Positions 1,632 to 39,683 of a stretch of 64,000 nucleotides of DNA are shown here, in pieces. The notes below the pieces were generated by a model. It ran no database searches. It was not told the origin of the DNA and was given only the letters and a program-made list of their open reading frames with translations. Origin of the DNA: Cyclobacteriaceae bacterium (GTDB taxonomy: Bacteria > Bacteroidota > Bacteroidia > Cytophagales > Cyclobacteriaceae); the NCBI GenBank assembly GCA_043750575.1, contig JAYVBH010000009.1, forward strand, positions 48,664 through 112,663. The letters run 5' to 3'. Both the position numbers and the translations under genes were made by a program. Each line of letters starts with the position of its first letter. The first letter of the stretch is position 1.

Positions 1632-3198
1632 GCGCGTACTTTTTGATCACCGCTTCAGCGCATCTTTCACCGTCGATGGCTGCCGAGACAATTCCACCGG
1701 CATATCCCGCTCCTTCTCCACAAGGGAATAGCCTAGCCATCTGAGGATGCTCAAGCGTTTCGGCATCCCGCGGAATTCTTACAGGTGATGAGGTCCTGCT
1801 TTCAACACCGACCACCTGGGCCTCGTTCGTCAAATATCCCTTCATCTTTGTTCCAAAACTCCGGAAGCCCACCCGAAGCCCTTCAGAAATAAATTTTGGA
1901 AACAAAGCACCAACATCTATCGATGCAAGACCTGGCTGGTATGAGGTCTCCAGCAATGATCCGGATGATTTCTTGTCGACAAAGTCAACCAGTCGTTGCG
2001 CGGGAGCAGTTTGAGTTCCCCCCGCTTCGCGACATGCGCGCTGCTCAATCTCCATCTGGAAGTACAGCCCCCGTAACGGGCCATGCTTCGCATATCCCTC
2101 CAGGTCATTCAATCCAACTGCCACAACTATGCCGGAATTGGCGTAGCGTGAATCACGACGTGACGGGCTCATACCATTCACCACCACCTCTCCTGGAACT
2201 GTCGCTGAGGGCACAATAAATCCACCCGGGCACATGCAGAAGGAAAATACACCACGCTCTTGCCCATCCGTCTTGGACTGTGCCACCACCGAATAGGCCG
2301 AAGCTGGTAAATGAGGATTGCGATCTCCAAGGCAATGATACTGAATTGAATCAATCAACCGCTGCTCGTGCTCCACGCGAACGCCCATGGCGAAAGGCTT
2401 TGCTTCAATGAGGACATTCTTGTGCCGCAGCAATTCAAAGATATCCCGCGCCGAGTGACCTGTTGCTAAAATGCATGCCTCACCTTCAATCCGCTCCCCC
2501 TGCGCCGTCTGAACAGCCTGGAATTCATTTTCCGAAAAATGAATATCTGATATATGTGTGTCAAATCGAATTTCACCACCACATTGAAGAATCGTCTCAC
2601 GTATCTCCTGTATCAACTGTGGCAATTTGTTTGTCCCGATATGCGGGTGTGCATCGTAGAGAATCTCTGGCTTGGCCCCATGCGCGACCATGATTTCCAG
2701 GATTCGCTTGACATTGCCACGCTTCGTAGACCTTGTGTAGAGCTTCCCATCCGAATAGGTACCTGCTCCTCCTTCACCAAAGCAGTAGTTTGAATGTGGA
2801 TTAACCACGTGATCCTTGTTGATGGCGGCAATGTCCCGGCGGCGTGCCTGCACATCTTTGCCACGCTCCAGAATAATTGGTTTTATCCCACTGTCGAGGA
2901 GCCGCAGCGCAGCAAACAATCCTGCAGGGCCAGCACCAACTATGACTACCCGCTTGCATTTGGAAACATCTGCCTGAGGTTTCTGATAAGTGATCTTCCG
3001 AGCGGCCTCATCCCTGGAGACAACCTCACCGGCAATGCGGACCACAATATTCCGGCTGCGTGCGTCAATCGATCGCTTGAGGATCCGGAATCCCTGTTCA
3101 GCAGAAATATGAATCTGTTCGGAAACACACGCCGAGAACAAAGCGTCATCAAACGCTTCTTCCGGGGTTAAAACAAGTTCAAAAGATTTGTTGTTCAT
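1624..3198 (-). CDS. FAD-dependent oxidoreductase (uncharacterised dehydrogenase family)
   Basis: VGAGPAGLFAA dinucleotide fold, FGEGGAGTYSDGKL, FCMCPGG, GEGAGYAGGIVSAAIDG; likely start ATG 3198. Confidence 0.9.
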   Translation of the reverse strand: MNNKSFELVLTPEEAFDDALFSACVSEQIHISAEQGFRILKRSIDARSRNIVVRIAGEVVSRDEAARKITYQKPQADVSKCKRVVIVGAGPAGLFAALRLLDSGIKPIILERGKDVQARRRDIAAINKDHVVNPHSNYCFGEGGAGTYSDGKLYTRSTKRGNVKRILEIMVAHGAKPEILYDAHPHIGTNKLPQLIQEIRETILQCGGEIRFDTHISDIHFSENEFQAVQTAQGERIEGEACILATGHSARDIFELLRHKNVLIEAKPFAMGVRVEHEQRLIDSIQYHCLGDRNPHLPASAYSVVAQSKTDGQERGVFSFCMCPGGFIVPSATVPGEVVVNGMSPSRRDSRYANSGIVVAVGLNDLEGYAKHGPLRGLYFQMEIEQRACREAGGTQTAPAQRLVDFVDKKSSGSLLETSYQPGLASIDVGALFPKFISEGLRVGFRSFGTKMKGYLTNEAQVVGVESRTSSPVRIPRDAETLEHPQMARLFPCGEGAGYAGGIVSAAIDGERCAEAVIKKYAHA

Positions 3199-10985: not shown

Positions 10986-11012
10986 CCTTGAGACTTACTA
11001 TCTGATTGCTAC

Positions 11013-12080
11013 CTAATCTTTAATGTAAACCAACACATTCAGCCACTGGACTGGGTTTCGCGGATCGTTCGTATAAACAGTTATCGCCTTCTGCTGCGTC
11101 CCACCCCGATTCTGTGGCTTGAAGCGTATCTTGATCTGAGTTGAGTCTCCGGCGCGGAGACTTTGCTTTGCTGATTCCGCAGAAATGCAAGTGCAGTTTC
11201 CTTGAAGTGCTCTGATCTTCAGCTCTCGTTTGCCTTTGTTGATCAACATAACATTTCGTTCCAGAGAAACCCCGGGCGTATGCTGTCCCAGGTCTACACT
11301 TTGCTCCCGCAGCACCGCCTGTGGCGCTCTCATCATATCTTCCGCCGTCGGGGTTGGATAGAACTCCTCAAGCGAAGCGAATACAGAGATTGATTTGTTT
11401 TCCTCTCCGGCATCGCTGGTGGTGAATAGCACATTATCAGAAACAAATCCAAAGGTATTCTTCATCCTGGCATCGTAGATCACATTGATTACTCCCTTTT
11501 GATGAGGCTCAATTACGGCAGGCATTCCAATCCGCATATAGTCAGGTTTTTCAACACCCAGAAACCGAAGGGGTTCGTCTCCATCATTCATAACCGGAAA
11601 CTGCTTTTGAACAGGCTCTTTATTAATATAGGCTGTCCCCATACTGAACGATTTTGTTTTCAACTTGAGCTTGCCCATGGTAATCGGATAAAGGTCATCC
11701 CCATTCGAAAATACCACCTGGCCTTTGATTTGGAGAACGACAGGGTTTGGGTCTGCATCCGTTAAGAGCGTAAGCGTCTTATTGAAATATCCAGGTCTAC
11801 CTTTAGGATCAAAACTTGCCTTGACAAATCCTGTCTTCCCGGAAGCAACCGGTTCCTTGGACCATCCAGGCGTTGTGCATCCACACGAGGTAGTGACGTT
11901 CAGGATCTTGACAGGCCTGCCACTGTTGTTGGTGAAGACAAATTCATGATCTGCATTACCCCTGGCTTCGAGGACGTCACCGAAGTCATAAACCTTCTCC
12001 CGGAAGATGAGCGACTCCAGGGCTTGTGCACCCAGAAATTCAGGAATCAAAAGAATGGCAGCAAGGATCAGTCTCCGCAT
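11013..12080 (-). CDS. DUF1573 domain-containing exported protein (three Ig-like modules)
   Basis: Signal MRRLILAAILL; TSCGCTTPGWSKEPVASGK and GNCTCISA DUF1573-type motifs; start ATG 12080. Confidence 0.85.
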   Translation of the reverse strand: MRRLILAAILLIPEFLGAQALESLIFREKVYDFGDVLEARGNADHEFVFTNNSGRPVKILNVTTSCGCTTPGWSKEPVASGKTGFVKASFDPKGRPGYFNKTLTLLTDADPNPVVLQIKGQVVFSNGDDLYPITMGKLKLKTKSFSMGTAYINKEPVQKQFPVMNDGDEPLRFLGVEKPDYMRIGMPAVIEPHQKGVINVIYDARMKNTFGFVSDNVLFTTSDAGEENKSISVFASLEEFYPTPTAEDMMRAPQAVLREQSVDLGQHTPGVSLERNVMLINKGKRELKIRALQGNCTCISAESAKQSLRAGDSTQIKIRFKPQNRGGTQQKAITVYTNDPRNPVQWLNVLVYIKD

Positions 12081-12094
12081 AGAACTATTTAACG

Positions 12095-12102
12095 CAAAAA
12101 TA
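12095..12102 (-). promoter_or_regulatory. -7 element TATTTTTG
   Basis: TAnnTTTG match 14 nt upstream of the DUF1573 start. Confidence 0.6.
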
Positions 12103-12140
12103 AGGGGATTTGCGTTAACCCTGTTTTCTTTGCATCTAAT

Positions 12141-13115
12141 ATGGCAAGAATTCTCACCGGCATTCAAAGCAGCGGGCGGCCTCACCTGGGTAACCTGCTG
12201 GGTGCCATCATTCCGGGAATAGCGCTTTCCCGCAAGCCGGGCAACGACTCTTTGTTCTTCATTGCCGACCTTCACTCACTGACCACCATTCGTGACGCCG
12301 AATTGAGAAAACAGAACACCCTCGCAGTCGCTGCAGCCTGGATCGCTTTTGGTTTCGATACAAACAAGAATCTTCTCTACCGCCAAAGCCGTATCCCTGA
12401 AGTCTGCGAGCTGACCTGGTATTTGAGCTGCTTCACACCCTTTCCTATGCTTGCCAACTCGCATGCTTTCAAGGACAAGTCCGACCGGCTGGCCGATGTA
12501 AACGCGGGATTGTTCATTTACCCGGTCTTGATGGCTTCGGATATCATTATGTACGATGCCAATATTGTGCCTGTCGGCAAAGACCAGAAGCAGCACATGG
12601 AAATGACCCGCGACATCGCCACTTCATTCAACACCCAATTCGGCGAAACATTTGTCGTTCCGGAAGCACAGATTGACGACCGGGTAATGACGGTCCCTGG
12701 AACAGACGGGCAAAAGATGAGCAAGTCATCCAACAACATCATTGACATCCTCCTCACCGAAAAGGAGCTGAAGAAACAGGTCATGTCAATCATCACCGAC
12801 AGTACCCCGATGGAGGCCCCGAAAAACCCGGATACGGACACTGTGTTTGCGATTTACAAATTAGTGGCTACTGCAGAGCAAACGGCCGAGCTTCGAAAGA
12901 AATACCTGGCCGGAAATTTTGGGTACGGACATGCGAAGCAGGAGCTCTTGGGACTGCTCATTGATAAATACAAGGCTGAACGCGAGGCTTTTCAGAATCT
13001 CATGGCTAACCCCAAGGAAATAAACAGGAGACTGGAAGAGGGCGAAGCCCGAGCCCGGGTAATCGCGAGAGAAGTGTTGGGGAGAGTTAGAATCAAATTG
13101 GGATTCTCGGAGTAG
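12141..13115 (+). CDS. trpS: Tryptophan--tRNA ligase
   Basis: ILTGIQSSGRPHLGN (HIGH), VPVGKDQKQH, KMSKS. Confidence 0.97.
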   Translation: MARILTGIQSSGRPHLGNLLGAIIPGIALSRKPGNDSLFFIADLHSLTTIRDAELRKQNTLAVAAAWIAFGFDTNKNLLYRQSRIPEVCELTWYLSCFTPFPMLANSHAFKDKSDRLADVNAGLFIYPVLMASDIIMYDANIVPVGKDQKQHMEMTRDIATSFNTQFGETFVVPEAQIDDRVMTVPGTDGQKMSKSSNNIIDILLTEKELKKQVMSIITDSTPMEAPKNPDTDTVFAIYKLVATAEQTAELRKKYLAGNFGYGHAKQELLGLLIDKYKAEREAFQNLMANPKEINRRLEEGEARARVIAREVLGRVRIKLGFSE

Positions 13116-13128
13116 AAAGGCAAAGGTT

Positions 13129-13655
13129 GCCACAGATTTCACAGATTAGCACAGATTGTAAGGTCAGAATATCAACCTCTTGTATTCTAAGCTTTTTCGC
13201 CCAAAATTGACAAGTAAGCCGACTTCACACCCTGAAACCTTCAGGTAGTTGATAGTTTGAGCAATTTGATCATTGACGAGGCCACCTTCTACGGCCTTTA
13301 TTTCAAGAATTATCTTGTCCCTCACCACAAAGTCAGCATAGAACTTGTGCGGGAGGATTGAGTCTTTATACTTTATTGAGTATTGTACCTCTCTGCCGAA
13401 AGTAATTTCCTTTCGCATAAGTTCGAATTGAATTGCATCCTTGTAAACTATCTCGAGGAATCCCTTCCCGAGTGTACGGTGGACATCCATGCAAATCCCA
13501 ATCAAAACATAAGTCTCGTCTTTTAGAGGGAAGTTTATGTCAGTCGATTCAATCGCCATCGCACGCAAGTTCGCGCGATTTAAGCTTGCAACATTATGGT
13601 TAGCCTCCGGAATTCCTGACTAAAAAAATCTGTGCTAATCTGCGTAATCTGTGGC
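13129..13655. mobile_element. Putative mini-element: GxxExxY gene enclosed by 29-bp inverted CACAGATT-triplet arms
   Basis: Left GCCACAGATTTCACAGATTAGCACAGATT (13129-13157); right arm 13627-13655 reverse-complements to GCCACAGATTACGCAGATTAGCACAGATT (27/29 identical). Confidence 0.6.
13164..13559 (-). CDS. GxxExxY protein (PD-(D/E)XK nuclease superfamily)
   Basis: VHRTLGKGFLEIVY (GxxExxY), YADFVV..KIILEIKA, QTINYL, GLLVNFG; likely start ATG 13559. Confidence 0.95.
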   Translation of the reverse strand: MAIESTDINFPLKDETYVLIGICMDVHRTLGKGFLEIVYKDAIQFELMRKEITFGREVQYSIKYKDSILPHKFYADFVVRDKIILEIKAVEGGLVNDQIAQTINYLKVSGCEVGLLVNFGRKSLEYKRLIF

Positions 13656-13661
13656 CAGACT

Positions 13662-14069
13662 CTACTTAGCCGTCCACACAATCTGCTGCTTCTCGCTGCC
13701 GATGTTTAGAACGATACGGGGAGGATTGGGAAGAATGGCAAGCTTTGTGTCTTTGCCGGCATAGTCATCCATCTCAACGAAGACGCCTTCGGTGTTGGCA
13801 ACACTGTATTCGTTGTTGGCGCTGATCTGGTACTTTTTCGCGATGTAGGCGATGGGCACAAGCACATCGCTGTCGGGGCAGTACTCATCGTGAATATCCT
13901 GTAAGGCATGCTCCAAGTCATCGCCAAACGTCTCCTGGAAGTCGTCCTCCAAGTCATGAAGCTTCTCTTCGAGGTCATCATAGGCCGGATTGTTGTAATC
14001 AAGCTTGGCCAGTTCCTGCCGATTTTTGATGATTTCAAGAAGGGCTATATCCAGGGCTTTGACGTCCAT
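13662..14069 (-). CDS. Acidic hypothetical protein
   Basis: 135-aa ORF with host-like codon usage; no motif recognised. Confidence 0.75.
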   Translation of the reverse strand: MDVKALDIALLEIIKNRQELAKLDYNNPAYDDLEEKLHDLEDDFQETFGDDLEHALQDIHDEYCPDSDVLVPIAYIAKKYQISANNEYSVANTEGVFVEMDDYAGKDTKLAILPNPPRIVLNIGSEKQQIVWTAK

Positions 14070-14101
14070 ATGTGCGAATTTAGGGCAAGATTAGGGAAAA
14101 G

Positions 14102-14278
14102 AGCTACAAGCTGCAAGCTACAAGCTGCAAGCATGGCGTTGTGGTTGATTCAGACCAAGTTGTAAAGCCAACTGAAGCTATGTGGGACCTTCCTTTTGCC
14201 AAGTGCAAAGGCCCTGGCCACATGGCTAAGACTAGTCGGATTTGGTAGCCGCAAGCTTGCCGCTTGTAGCCTGTAGCC
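14102..14278. repeat. Inverted GCTACAA/GCTGCAA heptamer cassette, gene-less
   Basis: Left agctacaagctgcaagctacaagctgcaagc (14102-14132); right gcttgccgcttgtagcctgtagcc (14255-14278). Confidence 0.75.
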
Positions 14279-14340
14279 GGAAGCAACCTAGGTGACAATC
14301 CAAGCCGAATACGTAAATTTACCAAGCCAATTAATTTACT

Positions 14341-17506: not shown

Positions 17507-17510
17507 AAGA

Positions 17511-17726
17511 AGGTTCAATAGTTCAAAGATCAAGATCAAAGTTCAAAGTTCAACAGTTCAAGGCTTGCCCCGACGTGGGAATTACCGGAAGTGAAATCGT
17601 CTGGGTCGGCAGGTGTTCAACTTTGGAAGTGAAAGAGCTATGCATTTTTGTCGGGGTTCAATAGTTCAGGGTTGAATAGTTTAAGGTCGAAAGTCTAAGG
17701 TTGAAGGTCGAAAGTCGAAAATGCAT
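17511..17726. repeat. Two direct arrays of GTTCAA/GTCGAA 7-8-mers with palindromic pieces
   Basis: gttcaatagttcaaagatcaagatcaaagttcaaagttcaacagttcaagg; gttcaatagttcagggttgaatagtttaaggtcgaaagtctaaggttgaaggtcgaaagtcgaaa; second array closed by atgcatttt/aaaatgcat. Confidence 0.7.
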
Positions 17727-17756
17727 AAAATAAAAACACATTAAACTCATTTGACC

Positions 17757-18235: not shown

Positions 18236-18333
18236 GGGTACTCACCGCAAAGGCGCAAAGCCGCGAAGGACCGCGAAGAATCCTTAGCGGTACTTCGCGG
18301 CTTTGCCCCGGCCTTGTGCCGGGGTGGTTACTC
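18236..18333. repeat. CGCAAAG/CGCGAAG-family palindromic element, copy 1
   Basis: gggtactcaccgcaaaggcgcaaagccgcgaaggaccgcgaagaatccttagcggtacttcgcggctttg...gtggttactc. Confidence 0.75.
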
Positions 18334-19710: not shown

Positions 19711-19801
19711 GGGTAACCACCGCTAAGACGCAACGGCGCAAAGGTCCGCGAAGAATTTCTTTGCGGAACTCTGCGTCTCTGTGCCTTTGCAGTGGTAACC
19801 C
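19711..19801. repeat. CGCAAAG-family palindromic element, copy 2
   Basis: gggtaaccaccgctaagacgcaacggcgcaaaggtccgcgaagaatttctttgcggaactctgcgtctctgtgcctttgcagtggtaaccc; aligns to copy 1. Confidence 0.8.
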
Positions 19802-32899: not shown

Positions 32900-33997
32900 T
32901 CAGCGACGGACTACTATGTCGACAATTTGTTTTATGTCCTCAAGGCTAAGCTCACCTCCAGACGGCAAGCACAAGCCCTGATCAAACAACTTTTCAGCAA
33001 CCGTCCCGCCAAAGGCAAGAGCGTCCTTAAAAAGCGGCTGATGATGCATCGGCTTCCACTGTCTCCTTCCCTCGATATTCGCGCGAGCCAAGCGTTCGAG
33101 AACCTCTCCGGGATGTACATCCTGAGGAAGAATGCAGGCGGGTAACCACGGTTGAAAATCAACCTCCGGTCCTGCCGCCTGGAAACGCAACCCAAACTTT
33201 TCACCGAGTGAGCGATAGTGCTCATAAATCTCTTTCCTTAACCGAAGCAACTCTGCCATCCGCGTCAACTGCAACAACCCATACGCAGCGATCAGCGGGC
33301 TCATGCGATAGTTGTGTCCTACTTCCTCATGCTGGTAGTATTGAACCGCAGAGCGGGCGTGCGATGCCAGGTACCTGGCCTTATCAATGATATCCGGATT
33401 ACCTGAGACAAGTGCCCCTCCGCCAAATGCGGTCACTCCCTTGTTGCTATTGAAAGACAAGACTCCGACATCGCCCAGTGTTCCTGTCCATTTCCCACGG
33501 AACCTGGATCCAAAAGATTCCGCGGCATCCTCGATAAGGGGGATGCCCCATTTTTTCGCAATCGGCAAAATCAAATCCATACGTGCGGGCATTCCGTAAT
33601 TATGCACCACAACAATGGCTCCCACCTTTTTTCCCAAGCTACAGATTTGGGTGATGCCCTGTTCCAGCAACACGGGATCCATATTCCACGTAAGTTCCTC
33701 ACTGTCAATCAAAACCGGATGAGCACCCAGGTACAGTATTGGACTTACGGAAGCTACATAGGCAAAGGTTGGGGCGATAACAAAATCACCCGGCTGAACA
33801 CCAACAACACGCAACGCAAGGTGCATCGCCGCTGTTCCCGATTGCACCGCTGTTACATTAGAGCATCCTACTTCGGTGCCTAACCGTTGCTCAAAGTCAT
33901 GCACGATTTCCTGATGGTCCCGACCTTGATATGATTTCAGAACCGCAGACAAGCCATCAGCATCGATTTCATTGTAGGATAGCGGAGTGCGGGTCAT
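32900..33997 (-). CDS. DegT/DnrJ/EryC1/StrS aminotransferase (PglE-like)
   Basis: SGTAAMHLAL, DSEELTWNMDP, IEDAAESFG, SFNSNK, GHNYRMSP. Confidence 0.92.
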   Translation of the reverse strand: MTRTPLSYNEIDADGLSAVLKSYQGRDHQEIVHDFEQRLGTEVGCSNVTAVQSGTAAMHLALRVVGVQPGDFVIAPTFAYVASVSPILYLGAHPVLIDSEELTWNMDPVLLEQGITQICSLGKKVGAIVVVHNYGMPARMDLILPIAKKWGIPLIEDAAESFGSRFRGKWTGTLGDVGVLSFNSNKGVTAFGGGALVSGNPDIIDKARYLASHARSAVQYYQHEEVGHNYRMSPLIAAYGLLQLTRMAELLRLRKEIYEHYRSLGEKFGLRFQAAGPEVDFQPWLPACILPQDVHPGEVLERLARANIEGRRQWKPMHHQPLFKDALAFGGTVAEKLFDQGLCLPSGGELSLEDIKQIVDIVVRR

Positions 33998-34001
33998 GGG
34001 G

Positions 34002-34099
34002 GGAGTTAGGAGTTGGGTATTGGGTGTTGGGCGTTCGGTGTTGGGAGTTCGGTGTTCGGTGTTCGGTGTTCGGTGTTGGGTATTAGGCGTTAGGTGTTA
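34002..34099. repeat. 14 in-phase heptamers GGNRTTV filling the intergenic gap
   Basis: ggagtta ggagttg ggtattg ggtgttg ggcgttc ggtgttg ggagttc ggtgttc ggtgttc ggtgttc ggtgttg ggtatta ggcgtta ggtgtta. Confidence 0.92.
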
Positions 34100-34707
34100 G
34101 GATTTCCGCGGAAGGGTTGTTCCGTGAGTGAGATGTCTTTTCGGAAGGATAAAAGTAGCACAATGGTTTTAAGAAGAATGCGCAGGTCGAGGATGAAAGA
34201 TTGGTTATTCACGTATTCAACATCGAGCTCGAACTTCTTCTGCCATGAAATGCCATGCCGGCCATTCACCTGCGCCCAGCCGGTGATGCCGGGCTTCATG
34301 GTGTGCCTCCTTCGTTGCTCCTCCGAGTAAAGCGGAAGGTACTCGAGCGGTAACGGCCGGGGACCCACGACAGACATATCCCCCGTGAGAACATTCCAGA
34401 GCTGAGGTAGTTCATCGAGGCTTGTGGTGCGCAGAAAGGAGCCCATCCAGAATTTCCGCTCAGGCAACGGCAGGCTATCATCAGTCGCCAACGTTCTGAA
34501 CTTGTACAACGTGAACGGCTGACCATCCTTGCCCGTTCGCAGCTGTTTGAAGATCATTGGGAAATGGCGTGTGATCAAAAAGGCAAAAGCCGTAGCCAGG
34601 AATAATGGCGACAAGAGGATGATACCCATTGCGGCAGCTATCCGGTCAACGATTGGTTTAACGAAAGACACATATATTCCCGGCATCTGGCTCGAGGGCA
34701 ATGGCAT
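34090..34707 (-). CDS. Priming sugar transferase (PglC-like phosphoglycosyl transferase)
   Basis: KFRTL, LRTTSLDELPQLWNVL.GDMSVVGPRP, KPGITGWAQVNGR; alternative start 34686. Confidence 0.93.
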   Translation of the reverse strand: MPLPSSQMPGIYVSFVKPIVDRIAAAMGIILLSPLFLATAFAFLITRHFPMIFKQLRTGKDGQPFTLYKFRTLATDDSLPLPERKFWMGSFLRTTSLDELPQLWNVLTGDMSVVGPRPLPLEYLPLYSEEQRRRHTMKPGITGWAQVNGRHGISWQKKFELDVEYVNNQSFILDLRILLKTIVLLLSFRKDISLTEQPFRGNPNT

Positions 34708-34737
34708 GCAAATTACGAAAGTTCGGGAGGCTTATTC

Positions 34738-34763
34738 ACCGCAGAGTCGGAGAGACGCAGAGG
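34738..34763. repeat. Half CGCAGAG-type periodic element
   Basis: accgcagagtcggagagacgcagagg. Confidence 0.45.
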
Positions 34764-34767
34764 AGTA

Positions 34768-35066
34768 CCCTATGGAATGTCTCACCGGACGGCGTCTCGC
34801 GTTCCGGTGTCCCGCGGCAGCCGCACAAATGCACCGGACGGCGCCTCTACGTTCCGGCAGCCGCACAAAGGCATTTCATCAAGCCGCACACAACACCCTA
34901 TGGAATGTCTCACCAGACGGCGTCTCGCGTTCCGGTGTCCCGCGACAGCCGCACAAATGCACCGGACGGCGTCTCGCGTTCCGGTGTCCCGCAGCAGCCG
35001 CACAAATGCACCGGACGGCGTCTCGCGTTCCGGTGTCCCGCGGCAGCCGTACAAACGTATTTCATT
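34768..35066. repeat. Array of 49-bp hairpin units in two higher-order blocks
   Basis: Unit caccggacggcgtctcgcgttccggtgtcccgcggcagccgcacaaatg at 34783, 34832 (variant), 34911, 34960, 35009; leader ccctatggaatgtct at 34768 and 34896. Confidence 0.93.
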
Positions 35067-35067
35067 A

Positions 35068-36986: not shown

Positions 36987-37730
36987 TCAAATTAACTCAA
37001 ACAATTTCCGAAAGTACTTGCTATACACCATGAACCCATTTGAGTAGATTCCATTTTCCTTGCAGGCCCTGAGAATTTCCCGATTGAGTATGATGTTACT
37101 CATCAGGCCTCGCGAACTTACTCCTCCCCTGCGCATATGAACCATCGTTAACGGCAGGTAGCGATACCTGAGCCGATTCACAAACAAGAACCTGATTAGT
37201 AATTCATAGTCTGCAGCAATGCGGTAATCGGTCTTGAAGAGGCCGATCTCCTCATAGAATTTCCTGCGTACAAAGAAGGTTGGATGGGCAGGCATGAAAC
37301 CCCAGGCGAATTTTTCTGGGTTCCATCGGGCGGAAGAATACCGCCGAACTACTTTTCCCAGATTCTGAGGATCAACAACGACCAGATCGCCAAAGACCGC
37401 ATCCACGGAAGGATCAGAAAATGCATCAGCGACGGAGGAAAGAATCTGCGGGGTGGCATAAAAATCATCTGAGTTGATGATGCCTACTACGTCCCCGGTG
37501 GCCAGGCGGATAGCCTTGTTCATCGCGTCATAAATGCCATGGTCGGGCTCACTGATCCAGCGTGTTACCACGTTGCCGGCGTTGCGGACAATATCCAGCG
37601 TTGAATCTTTGGATTGCCCGTCTACGACGATGTACTCAATGTTGTTGTGGGTTTGCTCCCGCACAGAGCGGATGGTATCACCGATGGTAGCTGCGGAATT
37701 AAAGGAAACGGTGAGGAGGGAAATCTTCAT
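36987..37730 (-). CDS. Glycosyltransferase family 2 (WcaE-like)
   Basis: EYIVVDGQSKD, SEPDHGIYDAMNK, INSDD, PAHPTFF, ADYEL. Confidence 0.92.
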   Translation of the reverse strand: MKISLLTVSFNSAATIGDTIRSVREQTHNNIEYIVVDGQSKDSTLDIVRNAGNVVTRWISEPDHGIYDAMNKAIRLATGDVVGIINSDDFYATPQILSSVADAFSDPSVDAVFGDLVVVDPQNLGKVVRRYSSARWNPEKFAWGFMPAHPTFFVRRKFYEEIGLFKTDYRIAADYELLIRFLFVNRLRYRYLPLTMVHMRRGGVSSRGLMSNIILNREILRACKENGIYSNGFMVYSKYFRKLFELI

Positions 37731-37743
37731 TCCGGAACGCGGC

Positions 37744-37955
37744 TAAATGCACTTTGCCACAGATTACACAGATTCACACAGATTATCGGATCAAATTTTT
37801 CTCGGCGTTCTTTGCGCATATTCCTCAGCGACCTCTGCGGTTAAATGCACTTTGCCACAGATTACACGGATTCACACAGATTATCGGATCAAATTCTTCT
37901 CGGCGTCCTTTGCGCCTATTCCTCAGCGGCTCTGCGGCTCTGCGGTTAAATGCAT
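37744..37955. repeat. Tandem 98/105-bp units, each a CACAGATT-triplet arm joined to a CTCTGCG-family arm
   Basis: taaatgca at 37744, 37842, 37947; GCCACAGATTACACAGATTCACACAGATT from 37757 and a 1-mismatch copy from 37855. Confidence 0.92.
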
Positions 37956-39683
37956 TTAACCCCGCTCAATCAAGCAGTTCTCCAACACAAGCATATCCAT
38001 TTCAGTGCGCAAAAAACAATTCAGCGCCTCTTGCGGGGTATTGACGATGGGCTCATTCTCATTGAACGAAGTATTCAACAAGATCGGGACTCCCGTCCTC
38101 TTTCTAAAGCACTCTATGAGACCGTAATACCGGGGCGATACCTCCTTCATGACCGTTTGCAACCTGCCCGTGCCATCCACGTGCGTTACCGCCGGGATGA
38201 TGGAGCGCTTTTCGGGACGGATGGGAAATACTTTCTCCATGAACGGAACGTCCTCGACTTTTTCAAAATACTCACTGGTGTATTCTTTCAGAATAGACGG
38301 GGCGAACGGGCGAAAGCTTTCTCGACGTTTGATCTTCGAGTTAAGCAAGTCTTTCGCCTTTGGGTTGCGCGGGTCGGCGAGGATGGAGCGTGCACCCAAT
38401 GCCCTCGGACCAAACTCTGCCCTTCCCGAAAACCAGCCTACTACTCCCGGCTCCAGCAGCTTATCCGTGATTTTCTCGAATAGTTCATCATCCGGCAGAC
38501 GACGGTAACTCACACCCTGCCCCTTGAGAAAAGTCTCAATCTCATCATTGGAAAACTTGCTGCCCGTGTAGGCACTGTAGATCGCTGGGGCGCGTTTATT
38601 ACGGAGCACATGATTATGCACATACAGCGCACTGCCCATGCTGATACCCGCATCATGACCGGCAGAAGGAATGTAGAGATTCTTAAAGGCAGTCTTCTCC
38701 AAAATCTTTCCATTGGCTACCGAGTTCTGTGCCACGCCGCCGGCAATACAAACGTTTCCCAATCCCGTTCGGTCTTGAAGTTTATTCAGAATGTGAAGGA
38801 TCAATTCCTCGCAGACCAATTGAACACTGGCGGCGATGTCCTTATGTTTTTGAGTTAGCTCTTCCGTGGGCTTGCGGGCAGGTCCGAAAATATCTTCGAT
38901 CTTCTTCCCGTACAGGGTGGAAATGACCGGGACAGACGTAGAATAATCCAGTTTGATCTCGGTAGGGCTGGCAAAATAGGACGCATCCCATCCGAACAGT
39001 CCGTCTGGTTTGAAGTGTAAAACTTTTCGGATCTCTTCCGCAAATACCGGCTTGCCATAAGGGGCCAGGCCCATTACCTTGTATTCATCCCCATAGTGCG
39101 GGAAGCCCAGGTACTGTGTAAAGGCCGTGTAAAACAATCCAGCGGAGACCGGAAAATCCACAGAATCAAGAACCTCGATCTGGTTGCCACGACCAACCGC
39201 AATCATGGTAGTGGTAAAATCTCCGGAGCCATCAATAGAGAGTATGGCCGCTTCCTCAAATGGACTGGCGAAGAAAGCCGAAGCGAGGTGACTGCGGTGG
39301 TGCTCGACTTGAACGATGCGGGGCTTGATCTCCGATTCGCTTAATCCACTGATGGCTGCAAGCTCATGCTCCAGGCTGGCCACCTTACTGGAGTTCTTCA
39401 GCCGATCCGACAACAGGGTATTCTTCTTGCCAATATTTTTCAGAACAAATCCAACCTTCCTCCAGAATTTAGCCCTGAGGTCTCGCCCAATGCAAATATG
39501 GTCAACCTCTTTCAACGTTATCCCGGCCTCTTGCAAGCAGAACTTCACCGCCTCACTCGGGAATCCCACCCAGTGTTTAATGCGACGGAACCGTTCTTCT
39601 TCAGTGGCCGCAATAAGAACGCCATCTTTAAAGATGGCGGCGGAAGAGTCTGCGTGGTGGGCGTTAAGGCCGAGGATGTACAT
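37956..39683 (-). CDS. Carbamoyltransferase (NodU/CmcH family)
   Basis: HADSSAA, EEERFRR.KH, VEHHRSH, GGVAQN, EFGPRALGARSIL, RESFRPFAP, THVDGTGRLQTV, LNTSFN. Confidence 0.95.
   Translation of the reverse strand: MYILGLNAHHADSSAAIFKDGVLIAATEEERFRRIKHWVGFPSEAVKFCLQEAGITLKEVDHICIGRDLRAKFWRKVGFVLKNIGKKNTLLSDRLKNSSKVASLEHELAAISGLSESEIKPRIVQVEHHRSHLASAFFASPFEEAAILSIDGSGDFTTTMIAVGRGNQIEVLDSVDFPVSAGLFYTAFTQYLGFPHYGDEYKVMGLAPYGKPVFAEEIRKVLHFKPDGLFGWDASYFASPTEIKLDYSTSVPVISTLYGKKIEDIFGPARKPTEELTQKHKDIAASVQLVCEELILHILNKLQDRTGLGNVCIAGGVAQNSVANGKILEKTAFKNLYIPSAGHDAGISMGSALYVHNHVLRNKRAPAIYSAYTGSKFSNDEIETFLKGQGVSYRRLPDDELFEKITDKLLEPGVVGWFSGRAEFGPRALGARSILADPRNPKAKDLLNSKIKRRESFRPFAPSILKEYTSEYFEKVEDVPFMEKVFPIRPEKRSIIPAVTHVDGTGRLQTVMKEVSPRYYGLIECFRKRTGVPILLNTSFNENEPIVNTPQEALNCFLRTEMDMLVLENCLIERG

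Follow-up and report, generated by a model that had tools for sequence, protein, structure and literature searches.

Intervening sequences (IVS) of 23S rRNA, as described in Coxiella, have stem-forming terminal inverted repeats composed of tandem GACAGAT heptamers and contain a small open reading frame (ORF); their origin and mobility are unexplained, and an arm holds two or three of the heptamers depending on the strain (PMC4990558). Repetitive extragenic palindromic (REP) sequences and REPINs (REP doublets forming hairpins) are short palindromic intergenic repeats, often arranged as doublets or clusters; one gene is flanked by inverted repeats and the non-autonomous copies far outnumber it (PMC3116915, PMC3337134). 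Short tandemly repeated repetitive (STRR) sequences are arrays of units of ~7 bp that are intergenic, occur also within operons (hupS-hupL), are capable of forming hairpins and have no known function (PMC2670836). The subject of this report is a tandem repeat at 37.7 kb of a 64,000-nt stretch of DNA from a Cyclobacteriaceae bacterium (contig JAYVBH010000009.1; the whole stretch is hereafter called the window), situated between a carbamoyltransferase gene and a family 2 glycosyltransferase (GT2) gene. With a probability of about 0.6, we regard it as gene-less, non-autonomous and partly hybrid, and as belonging to a widespread class of hairpin repeats found between genes. The arms of this class are built of short C-R-C-N-R-A units that repeat every 7-10 nt, and one branch of it, with GCCAC-N-GAT-T arms, forms the terminal inverted repeats of small GxxExxY genes encoding PD-(D/E)XK nucleases.

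An Insertion at a Stop/Start Overlap

The 37.7-kb element lies between a carbamoyltransferase gene (37956..39683, minus strand; Pfam Carbam_trans_N, E 1e-62, and Carbam_trans_C, E 6e-70), which is upstream, and a GT2 gene (36987..37730, minus strand; Glycos_transf_2, E 4e-22), which is downstream; the intergenic gap is 225 nt. A contig of a related strain from metagenome X3, a metagenome that also contains the window's own filled allele, joins position 37730 straight to 37963, with no shared and no intervening letters. Relative to this empty allele, the segment 37731..37962 (232 nt, not assigned to a strand) is inserted between the carbamoyltransferase stop and the GT2 start. The empty allele reads ...TTGATTGAGCG|ATGAAGATT... 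on the coding strand (GAGCG|ATGAAG on the minus strand), and in it the carbamoyltransferase TGA overlaps the GT2 ATG. The same 4-nt ATGA overlap is found at the orthologous junction of Cytophagales bacterium WSM2-2, whose GT2 is 75% identical to that of the window. The 232-nt block thus entered exactly at the ATGA stop/start overlap of the two genes. As a result, the carbamoyltransferase of the window is one residue longer and ends at a TAA (37956-37958) supplied by the terminal palindrome TTAAATGCATTTAA of the insert, and the GT2 ATG is unaltered. The joint shows no target-site duplication, and neither a sigma-70-like promoter nor an intrinsic-terminator-like site was found in a scan of 37500-38200.

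A first-pass annotation, made from the letters and their ORFs, had correctly noted a tandem duplication within a glycan operon, at the carbamoyltransferase-GT2 junction. It overlooked that the repeat was inserted where the two genes had shared an ATGA overlap, and also that its arm class crosses phyla and resembles the arms of the 23S IVS.

Orthologous junctions in two further lineages are occupied by other hairpins. In GCA_031384895.1 (locus L002; GT2 89% identical), the carbamoyltransferase ends with GAGCGATGA and is followed by a 97-nt element (2898-3000 of the locus) in which a loop separates four CTTTGCG units from three CGCAAAG units, the whole forming an 18-bp perfect hairpin. This hairpin is bordered by a GATGAA duplication that supplies both the TGA stop and the ATG start. 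A third lineage (locus L207, 1-178) has a diverged copy of the same hairpin at the junction, with another arm upstream of it. These hairpins show that different members of one repeat superfamily have entered the junction on at least two occasions. A GxxExxY gene, which had been proposed as something to look for at orthologous carbamoyltransferase-GT2 junctions, was not found there: the junctions seen were either empty or filled with other gene-less hairpins.

Structure of the Tandem Repeat

Tandem Repeats Finder reports a period of 98 with 2.1 copies, 92% matches and a score of 351 at 37739-37939. Combined with pairwise alignment, it delimits unit 1 (37744..37841, 98 nt) and unit 2 (37842..37946, 105 nt), neither assigned to a strand. 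The earlier description of two such units, differing by a CTCTGCG-type heptanucleotide and a few substitutions, was accurate in content and coordinates. Direct alignment gives five substitutions, four of which are transitions, and a single 7-nt indel, which corresponds to one additional CTCTGCG sub-repeat in unit 2.

Each unit begins with TAAATGCACTTT, followed by GCCACAGATTACAC(A/G)GATTCACACAGATT, a 13-nt spacer and a partner stretch. The first arm, consisting of CACAGATT x3 and thus a GCCACAGATT-type triple octamer, is situated on the plus strand at 37756..37784 in unit 1 (GCCACAGATTACACAGATTCACACAGATT) and at 37854..37882 in unit 2 (GCCACAGATTACACGGATTCACACAGATT, with one A>G change). The partner arm lies on the minus strand at 37798..37840 in unit 1, where it reads CCGCAGAGGTCGCTGAGGAATATGCGCAAAGAACGCCGAGAAA, and at 37896..37945 in unit 2, where it consists of CGCAGAG x2, CGCTGAG, CGCAAAG and CGCCGAG. 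The reverse complement of the partner stretch in each unit is CCGCAGAG...CGCTGAG...CGCAAAG...CGCCGAG, and on the minus strand the partner reads TTAACCGCAGAG(CCGCAGAG)CCGCTGAGGAATAGGCGCAAAGGACGCCGAGAAG, in agreement with the first-pass annotation. The perfect palindrome TTAAATGCATTTAA (37946..37959, no strand; inverted repeats I4 and I8) is the third boundary copy and ends the array, and near-copies of it at 37744-37755 and 37842-37853 are the unit boundaries. The boundary motif AAATGCA has no general association with arms, being found at 0.22 per kb both near arms and elsewhere, and is therefore local to this genome.

The two-unit structure is not an assembly artefact. The window is metagenome-assembled, and repeats are easily collapsed or expanded in such assemblies. 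However, independent Logan assemblies of two runs contain a 23.5-kb contig identical to the window, and a third Logan assembly, belonging to a separate study, covers 37692-38004 in a 313-nt contig with no differences, so that the same two-unit sequence is reproduced in three assemblies and two studies. The longest exact match between the units is shorter than the 31-nt word of the assembler, and the units differ often enough to be resolved with words of this length. No single-unit allele was found in the contigs of four metagenomes. A chance low-complexity repeat is also disfavored by the motif counts, which lie far above those in shuffles: CACAGATTNCACAGATT occurs four times in the window at up to three mismatches (0.68 expected), exclusively at the 37.7-kb and 13.1-13.7-kb loci, and none of 100 shuffles reached this number; arrays of at least three C-R-C-N-R-A units number eight in the window vs. 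0.12 in shuffles. An assembly error, a chimeric contig or a chance repeat is accordingly a highly improbable account of the feature.

Searches for other identities of the repeat gave no match. Rfam matches were absent from the whole window at gathering thresholds and from 37650-38050 at E-values up to 10, and no tRNA or tmRNA gene was found in the window. A CRISPR was set aside, as there are two copies with a 98-nt period and nothing pointing to CRISPR. The interior of the unit (which reads ...EEYAQRTPRKI*) was considered as a relic of a GxxExxY C-terminus, and this idea was dropped for want of any supporting similarity.

The GxxExxY Gene and Its Arms

The window has one GxxExxY/PD-(D/E)XK_3 nuclease gene (13164..13568, minus strand; PF13366, E 3e-33; TIGR04256, E 2e-36), and a profile search of the six-frame ORFs of at least 60 aa in the whole window gave a GxxExxY match at 13167-13559 only. 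The gene is enclosed by the inverted repeat I1, which comprises a 29-nt arm on the 3' (stop-codon) side (13129..13157, plus strand; GCCACAGATTTCACAGATTAGCACAGATT) and an arm on the 5' (upstream) side (13627..13655, minus strand); the arms are 93% complementary and 469 nt apart. An AlphaFold model of the protein (pLDDT 93) has a Cas4/lambda-exonuclease-like fold, and its best structural matches are Cas4 SSO0001, the lambda and alkaline exonucleases and the Holliday-junction resolvase Hjc. These matches came from fold comparison alone, as a sequence search of the PDB with the protein gave none. The D...E-x-K motif (ADF...LEIK) is intact, so the protein is plausibly an active DNA nuclease, as predicted from its sequence and modeled fold.

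The 29-nt arm structure that had been proposed to be common to the 37.7-kb units and the 13.1-13.7-kb arms is borne out by alignment to 13129-13157, with 26/29 identities for unit 1 and 25/29 for unit 2. Three of the differences, which are all of those in unit 1, fall in the spacers between octamers, and the arm of unit 2 has one more inside an octamer. The units had also been called orphan copies, and this is correct: no GxxExxY ORF lies inside or adjoins them, and the arms are 13 nt apart.

To place these arms, 80 metagenome loci encoding GxxExxY relatives of 50-71% identity were retrieved. In 63 non-redundant loci, at least 17 of 24 bases are complementary between the upstream and downstream flanks of the gene, and nearly all of these arms have the form GCCAC-N-GA-(T/A)T...GTGGC, often lengthened by runs of T and A. 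The gene lies within a pair of arms in 44 loci and between two hairpins in 19. Since arms flank most of the GxxExxY genes fetched, the name "GxxExxY arm" is justified. Around 86 GxxExxY genes, the arm units seen most often are CACAGAT (31 cases), CACGAAT (15), CACTAAT (eight), CACGGAT (eight) and CGCAGAT (four), and CGCAAAG is seen once. The partner arm at 37.7 kb does therefore belong to another sub-family, as had been proposed, because the CGCAAAG/CGCAGAG type flanks a single gene of the 86. GxxExxY proteins that share an arm family are slightly more alike than others (58.8% vs. 55.1%, permutation p 0.0005), a difference that could be explained by host relatedness. Whole arm or hairpin units are repeated in tandem beside GxxExxY genes at five loci (L133, L152, L175, L188 and L189), and mixed arm pairs occur around single genes, for example at L129 and L149.

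The GCCAC-N-GAT-T arm class was defined in this analysis from the terminal inverted repeats of GxxExxY genes. The segments 37756-37784 and 37854-37882 have its features, namely two to three CAC-N-GA-TT octamers at a spacing of 9-10 nt and a GCCAC start. An inverted partner of the same sub-family is absent at 37.7 kb, where the partner is of the CGCAGAG/CGCTGAG/CGCAAAG type, and between the CACAGATT arm and this partner the terminal 7 nt alone can pair, with a G.U pair on one strand.

Distribution of the Arm

An exact scan for CACAGATTNCACAGATT, with one genome per species, returned at least 120 stretches. The isolates among the matches listed belong to Flavobacterium, Chryseobacterium and Herpetosiphon. 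The metagenome-assembled genomes among them come from Bacteroidota, Chloroflexota, Acidobacteriota, Planctomycetota, Verrucomicrobiota and Cyanobacteria, and further ones from Cloacimonadota, Spirochaetota, Proteobacteria, Firmicutes and archaea. Among these same listed matches, a GxxExxY ORF is near the stretch in three cases; an arm, a short loop and an inverted arm follow one another within 150 nt in ~35; a partner arm lies more than 300 nt away in nine; and no partner of the same family is present in 78, many of which adjoin arms of other unit types, as at 37.7 kb. The gene junctions that carry arms, again among the matches listed, are co-directional in 45 cases, convergent in 21 and divergent in 10. 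Contig depth in the source metagenomes is 200-330 over the arm vs. ~20 for the flanks, and the remainder of the 98-nt unit is at baseline, which indicates that the arm is multi-copy and the 98-nt unit is not. No description of GCCAC-type arms or of a GxxExxY arm system was found in the literature searched by family names and arm sequences.

Separable Arms and a Probable Recombination Tract

In a variant strain in X3, the trpS locus has both arms but is missing exactly the intervening 450 nt, in which the GxxExxY gene lies (joint 13157->13608), and other contigs from the same communities show arms of the 13.1-13.7-kb type around loops of 20-35 nt. Such an arms-only allele, together with the occurrence of the same arms in gene-bearing and gene-less forms, might indicate that the 37.7-kb element is the remnant of a full GxxExxY cassette, from which the gene was deleted internally before the solo arms were duplicated. 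The 13 nt between the arms, however, are dissimilar to both ends of the GxxExxY element; the partner-arm family is the one that so rarely flanks GxxExxY genes; and no relative was found with the gene at the carbamoyltransferase-GT2 junction. A cassette remnant is thus an improbable origin.

GCA_031384895.1 has a GxxExxY element at the same locus as the window (L208). Comparison of window positions 11006-14118 with L208 gives 98-100% identity across the element, decaying smoothly on both sides: it is down to ~0.95 at a distance of 300 nt, to 0.87 by 600 nt and to 0.75 farther than 1 kb away. This gradient looks like what a recent homologous-recombination tract centered on the GxxExxY element would leave. 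Homing endonuclease genes produce the same gradient through co-conversion of flanks. The upstream arm has four differences from L208 in 30 nt vs. 9 in 551 elsewhere in the tract (Fisher p 0.003), and this fast change suggests arm-specific turnover or conversion from other copies.

Change in whole periods is typical of the repeat class as a whole, given the 7-nt sub-repeat indel at 37.7 kb, the one fewer 14-nt period that L208 has in the inverted repeat at 14103-14284 (where L208 also has a 32-nt core deletion and conserved flanks), a variant shorter by 99 nt, in two metagenomes, of the repeat of 49-nt units at 34911-35055 (joint 34918->35018), and the whole-unit tandem hairpins beside GxxExxY genes. 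The variable heptamer number of the Coxiella IVS arms is change of the same kind (PMC4990558). The earlier statement that arms of different families recombine and expand in whole periods therefore stands with regard to expansion. Its other half, recombination between families, does not follow from these data, which nested insertion or divergence would fit equally well.

RNA Folding at the Junction

The possibility that the repeat is a functional intercistronic RNA element, whose hairpins would act as a processing site for RNase III or another enzyme, or as a stabilizer, and would set the relative expression of the carbamoyltransferase and GT2 genes, deserves consideration by comparison with REP elements and bacterial interspersed mosaic elements (BIMEs), with the cyanobacterial STRR hairpins (hupS-hupL) and with the stems of the 23S IVS. 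On the minus strand, which is that of the mRNA, a G.U pair allows the terminal CCGCAGA to pair with UCUGUGG, and the unit boundary AAGUGCAUUU is self-complementary. Unit 2 folds on this strand with -30 kcal/mol vs. -23.3 for shuffles (z -2.25), compared with z ~0 on the antisense strand, and the L002 hairpin at the orthologous junction is very stable (z -4.4 and -6.0 on its two strands). Furthermore, RNase III cuts IVS stems of the same arm build (PMC4990558), and STRR hairpins at operon junctions are suspected stabilizers (PMC2670836).

On the other hand, unit 1 (z -0.3) and the whole gap (z -0.56) fold no better than shuffled sequences, and the longest uninterrupted helix at 37.7 kb spans ~10 bp, a short substrate for RNase III. 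Nor is G.U favored on the sense strand among arm mismatches (34 G.U vs. 26 A.C in 63 GxxExxY arm pairs). Both the co-occurring strain and relatives have an empty junction, which shows that the element can be dispensed with. The locus was found in no RNA sequencing run. Because of the weak folding, the lack of a G.U preference and the empty junction, a selected RNA role is ranked below neutral or selfish insertion and is, on these modeled structures, an unlikely explanation.

Proposed Origin of the Hybrid Element

For the hairpin-repeat member that we prefer, the following course may be envisaged. The block would be a dimer of one unit composed of a boundary palindrome, a CGCAGAG/CGCAAAG-type arm, a 13-nt spacer and a CACAGATT x3 arm. 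Such a dimer could have arisen when the palindromic boundaries TTAAATGCAYTT recombined unequally or slipped during replication, and the 7-nt difference between the units through slippage of one sub-repeat. The hybrid arm pair would result from arm exchange or nested insertion. At the junction, the element would have no selected function; its presumed effects are that the carbamoyltransferase and GT2 are no longer translationally coupled and that the polycistronic mRNA acquires a modest hairpin. Mobilization could take place in trans, with a GxxExxY-type nuclease making breaks that recombination then repairs.

Three routes to the hybrid all fit the data, with no choice among them. Exchange between arms of different sub-families is supported indirectly by the mixed pairs at L129 and L149 and by the fast-changing arm. 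Equally possible is nesting of the CACAGATT arm beside a CGCAAAG arm like that of the L002/L207 junction: an alignment of the partner arm to the L002/L207 hairpin, at the right arm of the latter (GCGCAAAGGA-CGC-N-AGA-N-AATTT), shows a likeness at the family level that may reflect orthology or a shared repeat family. Drift within a continuum of units (CACAGAT, CGCAGAT, CGCAGAG, CGCAAAG) is also possible.

Several points weigh against this reading of the 37.7-kb element. Its partner arm is no true inverted repeat of the CACAGATT arm, and in the metagenomes examined the complete 98-nt unit, unlike its CACAGATT arm, occupies a single locus, so that transposition of the unit as such is at most putative. 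Copy number was judged on assembled contigs. The role of the nuclease rests on association, and the recombination tract around the GxxExxY element was observed in one case. Finally, unit 2 folds better than shuffled sequences on the mRNA strand only, leaving room for an RNA role.

A broader and distinctly tentative proposal is that GxxExxY nucleases and GCCAC-type arms constitute a cross-phylum mobile system, in which the gene with its arms would be the autonomous form and the many hairpin copies the non-autonomous one, spreading by break-induced, homing-like recombination with co-conversion of flanks and not by classical transposition. Under this proposal, 23S IVS and STRR-like arrays would be special cases or by-products, and the chimeric unit at 37.7 kb would have come from nuclease-stimulated exchange between arm families.

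Other Filled Junctions and Repeats in the Window

Further junctions of the same operon are filled in the window. About 13 CACCGAA heptamers (coding strand, 33998-34089) occupy the entire gap between a sugar transferase gene (34090-34707, minus strand) and an aminotransferase gene (32900-33997, minus strand), and the stop codon of the transferase lies within the array, which Tandem Repeats Finder places at 34001-34098 with a period of 7. A 360-nt block (34708-35067) separates the GT4 and sugar transferase genes, which overlap by 8 nt in L004. It contains CGCAGAG-type units at 34740-34762 and three copies of the 49-nt repeat (34911-35055), each with a CACCGGA...TCCGGTG hairpin inside it, and older copies are situated at ~34776-34870. 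In L004-L006, the operon junctions orthologous to the filled ones of the window are 8 nt long or overlapping, and the sugar transferase and aminotransferase genes are 8 nt apart.

Outside the operon, the inverted repeat at 14103-14284 has GCTACAA/GCTGCAA heptamer arms around a 116-nt core and sits between a 135-aa ORF and a 4-hydroxyphenylpyruvate dioxygenase-like gene; an X3 variant near 14.1 kb has a 23-nt insertion at 14113 and a further joint, 14161->14292. The 135-aa ORF (13662-14069), which is acidic and lies beside the GxxExxY element, has no Pfam or NCBIfam match and is found at the same position in L208. The gap between a phosphoglucomutase-like and a DinB-like gene (17507-17750) is filled by GTTCAAA-type (17513-17561) and GTTGAA/GTCGAAA-type (~17656-17720) arrays surrounding a core of ~95 nt, with AAAATGCAT at the end. 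A CGCAAAG/CGCGAAG hairpin with 27-nt arms and a 4-nt loop (18246-18309) lies between convergent genes and overlaps the final codons of a 485-aa radical-SAM-like ORF, upstream of which is a CACAGAG/CGCAGAG/CGCAAA array (19760-19783).

Over 42000-64000, G+C falls from ~48-53% to 37-43%, the GC skew is strongly negative and there is a long run of minus-strand genes. The identity of the GT2 to that of GCA_031384895.1 also differs from the identity of the housekeeping flanks. The G+C shift, the skew and the difference in GT2 identity suggest a horizontally exchanged, variable polysaccharide locus.

Significance and Comparison with Known Systems

Taken alone, the 37.7-kb repeat is an ordinary event, in which a small repeat colonized a gene junction in a variable polysaccharide locus. 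What deserves attention is that nearly the same arm is found across bacterial and archaeal phyla and regularly brackets a small uncharacterized nuclease gene; that its build matches that of the 23S IVS arms, whose origin has been an open question since ~1990; and that, in one case, a sharp recombination tract between genomes that have diverged is centered on the element. Should the nuclease drive the spread, it would provide a testable model for the origin and movement of intervening sequences, STRR-like arrays and hairpins, and, if true, would account for many of the odd short ORFs and tails of repeats that are annotated in genomes of Bacteroidota, Planctomycetota and Verrucomicrobiota. The 37.7-kb feature itself is modest, and it is the class-level link among the GxxExxY nuclease, the cross-phylum arms, the IVS-like architecture and the recombination tract that merits follow-up.

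Like the class seen at 37.7 kb, the 23S IVS of Coxiella burnetii, Leptospira and Salmonella are small selfish insertions with terminal repeats, in which GACAGAT corresponds to CACAGAT-T. They differ in residing in helix 25 or 45 of 23S rRNA, in having an S23p four-helix-bundle ORF and in being excised by RNase III, whereas the 37.7-kb element lies between protein-coding genes, has no ORF and forms a weak stem, and its gene-bearing kin have a PD-(D/E)XK nuclease. The window has no rRNA or Rfam match that would place the element in either helix. The short-unit build of the IVS is present, but compared with the 28-bp stem of Coxiella the stem here amounts to ~10 + 7 bp with G.U pairs (z -0.3 to -2.25).

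REP/REPIN sequences and their REP-associated tyrosine transposases (RAYTs) resemble the GxxExxY arm class in that one gene is flanked by repeats and many copies are gene-less: in the 64-kb window the gene is flanked by inverted copies, and gene-less copies abound in the community as well as in other genomes. RAYTs, however, are HUH tyrosine transposases of the IS200/IS605-like type, and REP sequences are lineage-specific and mostly inherited vertically in Proteobacteria. The gene associated with the arm class is instead a PD-(D/E)XK_3 gene, Cas4/lambda-exonuclease-like, and the arms are internally repetitive and nearly identical across many phyla.

The counterpart of STRR in the window is the (CACCGAA)n array at 34001-34098. 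STRR sequences are simple arrays in heterocystous cyanobacteria, for which PMC2670836 describes no link to a nuclease gene or to inverted arms; at 37.7 kb, by contrast, the arms have a period of 8-10 nt and the unit one of 98 nt, in a Cytophagales-like host. Miniature inverted-repeat transposable elements (MITEs) share with the 37.7-kb element its shortness, the lack of a gene, the terminal repeats and a presence that is polymorphic between strains, and share with the arm class a relation to a longer gene-bearing form by internal deletion. Unlike MITEs, the element has no target-site duplication (the GATGAA duplication belongs to the different hairpin of L002) and no recognized transposase, its arms are no true inverted copies, and the unit is not multi-copy. 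The 37.7-kb element thus lacks some defining features of each of IVS, REP/REPIN-RAYT, STRR and MITEs; without being a new kind of gene, it is probably a gene-less, hybrid and dimerized member of an under-described class of hairpin repeats.

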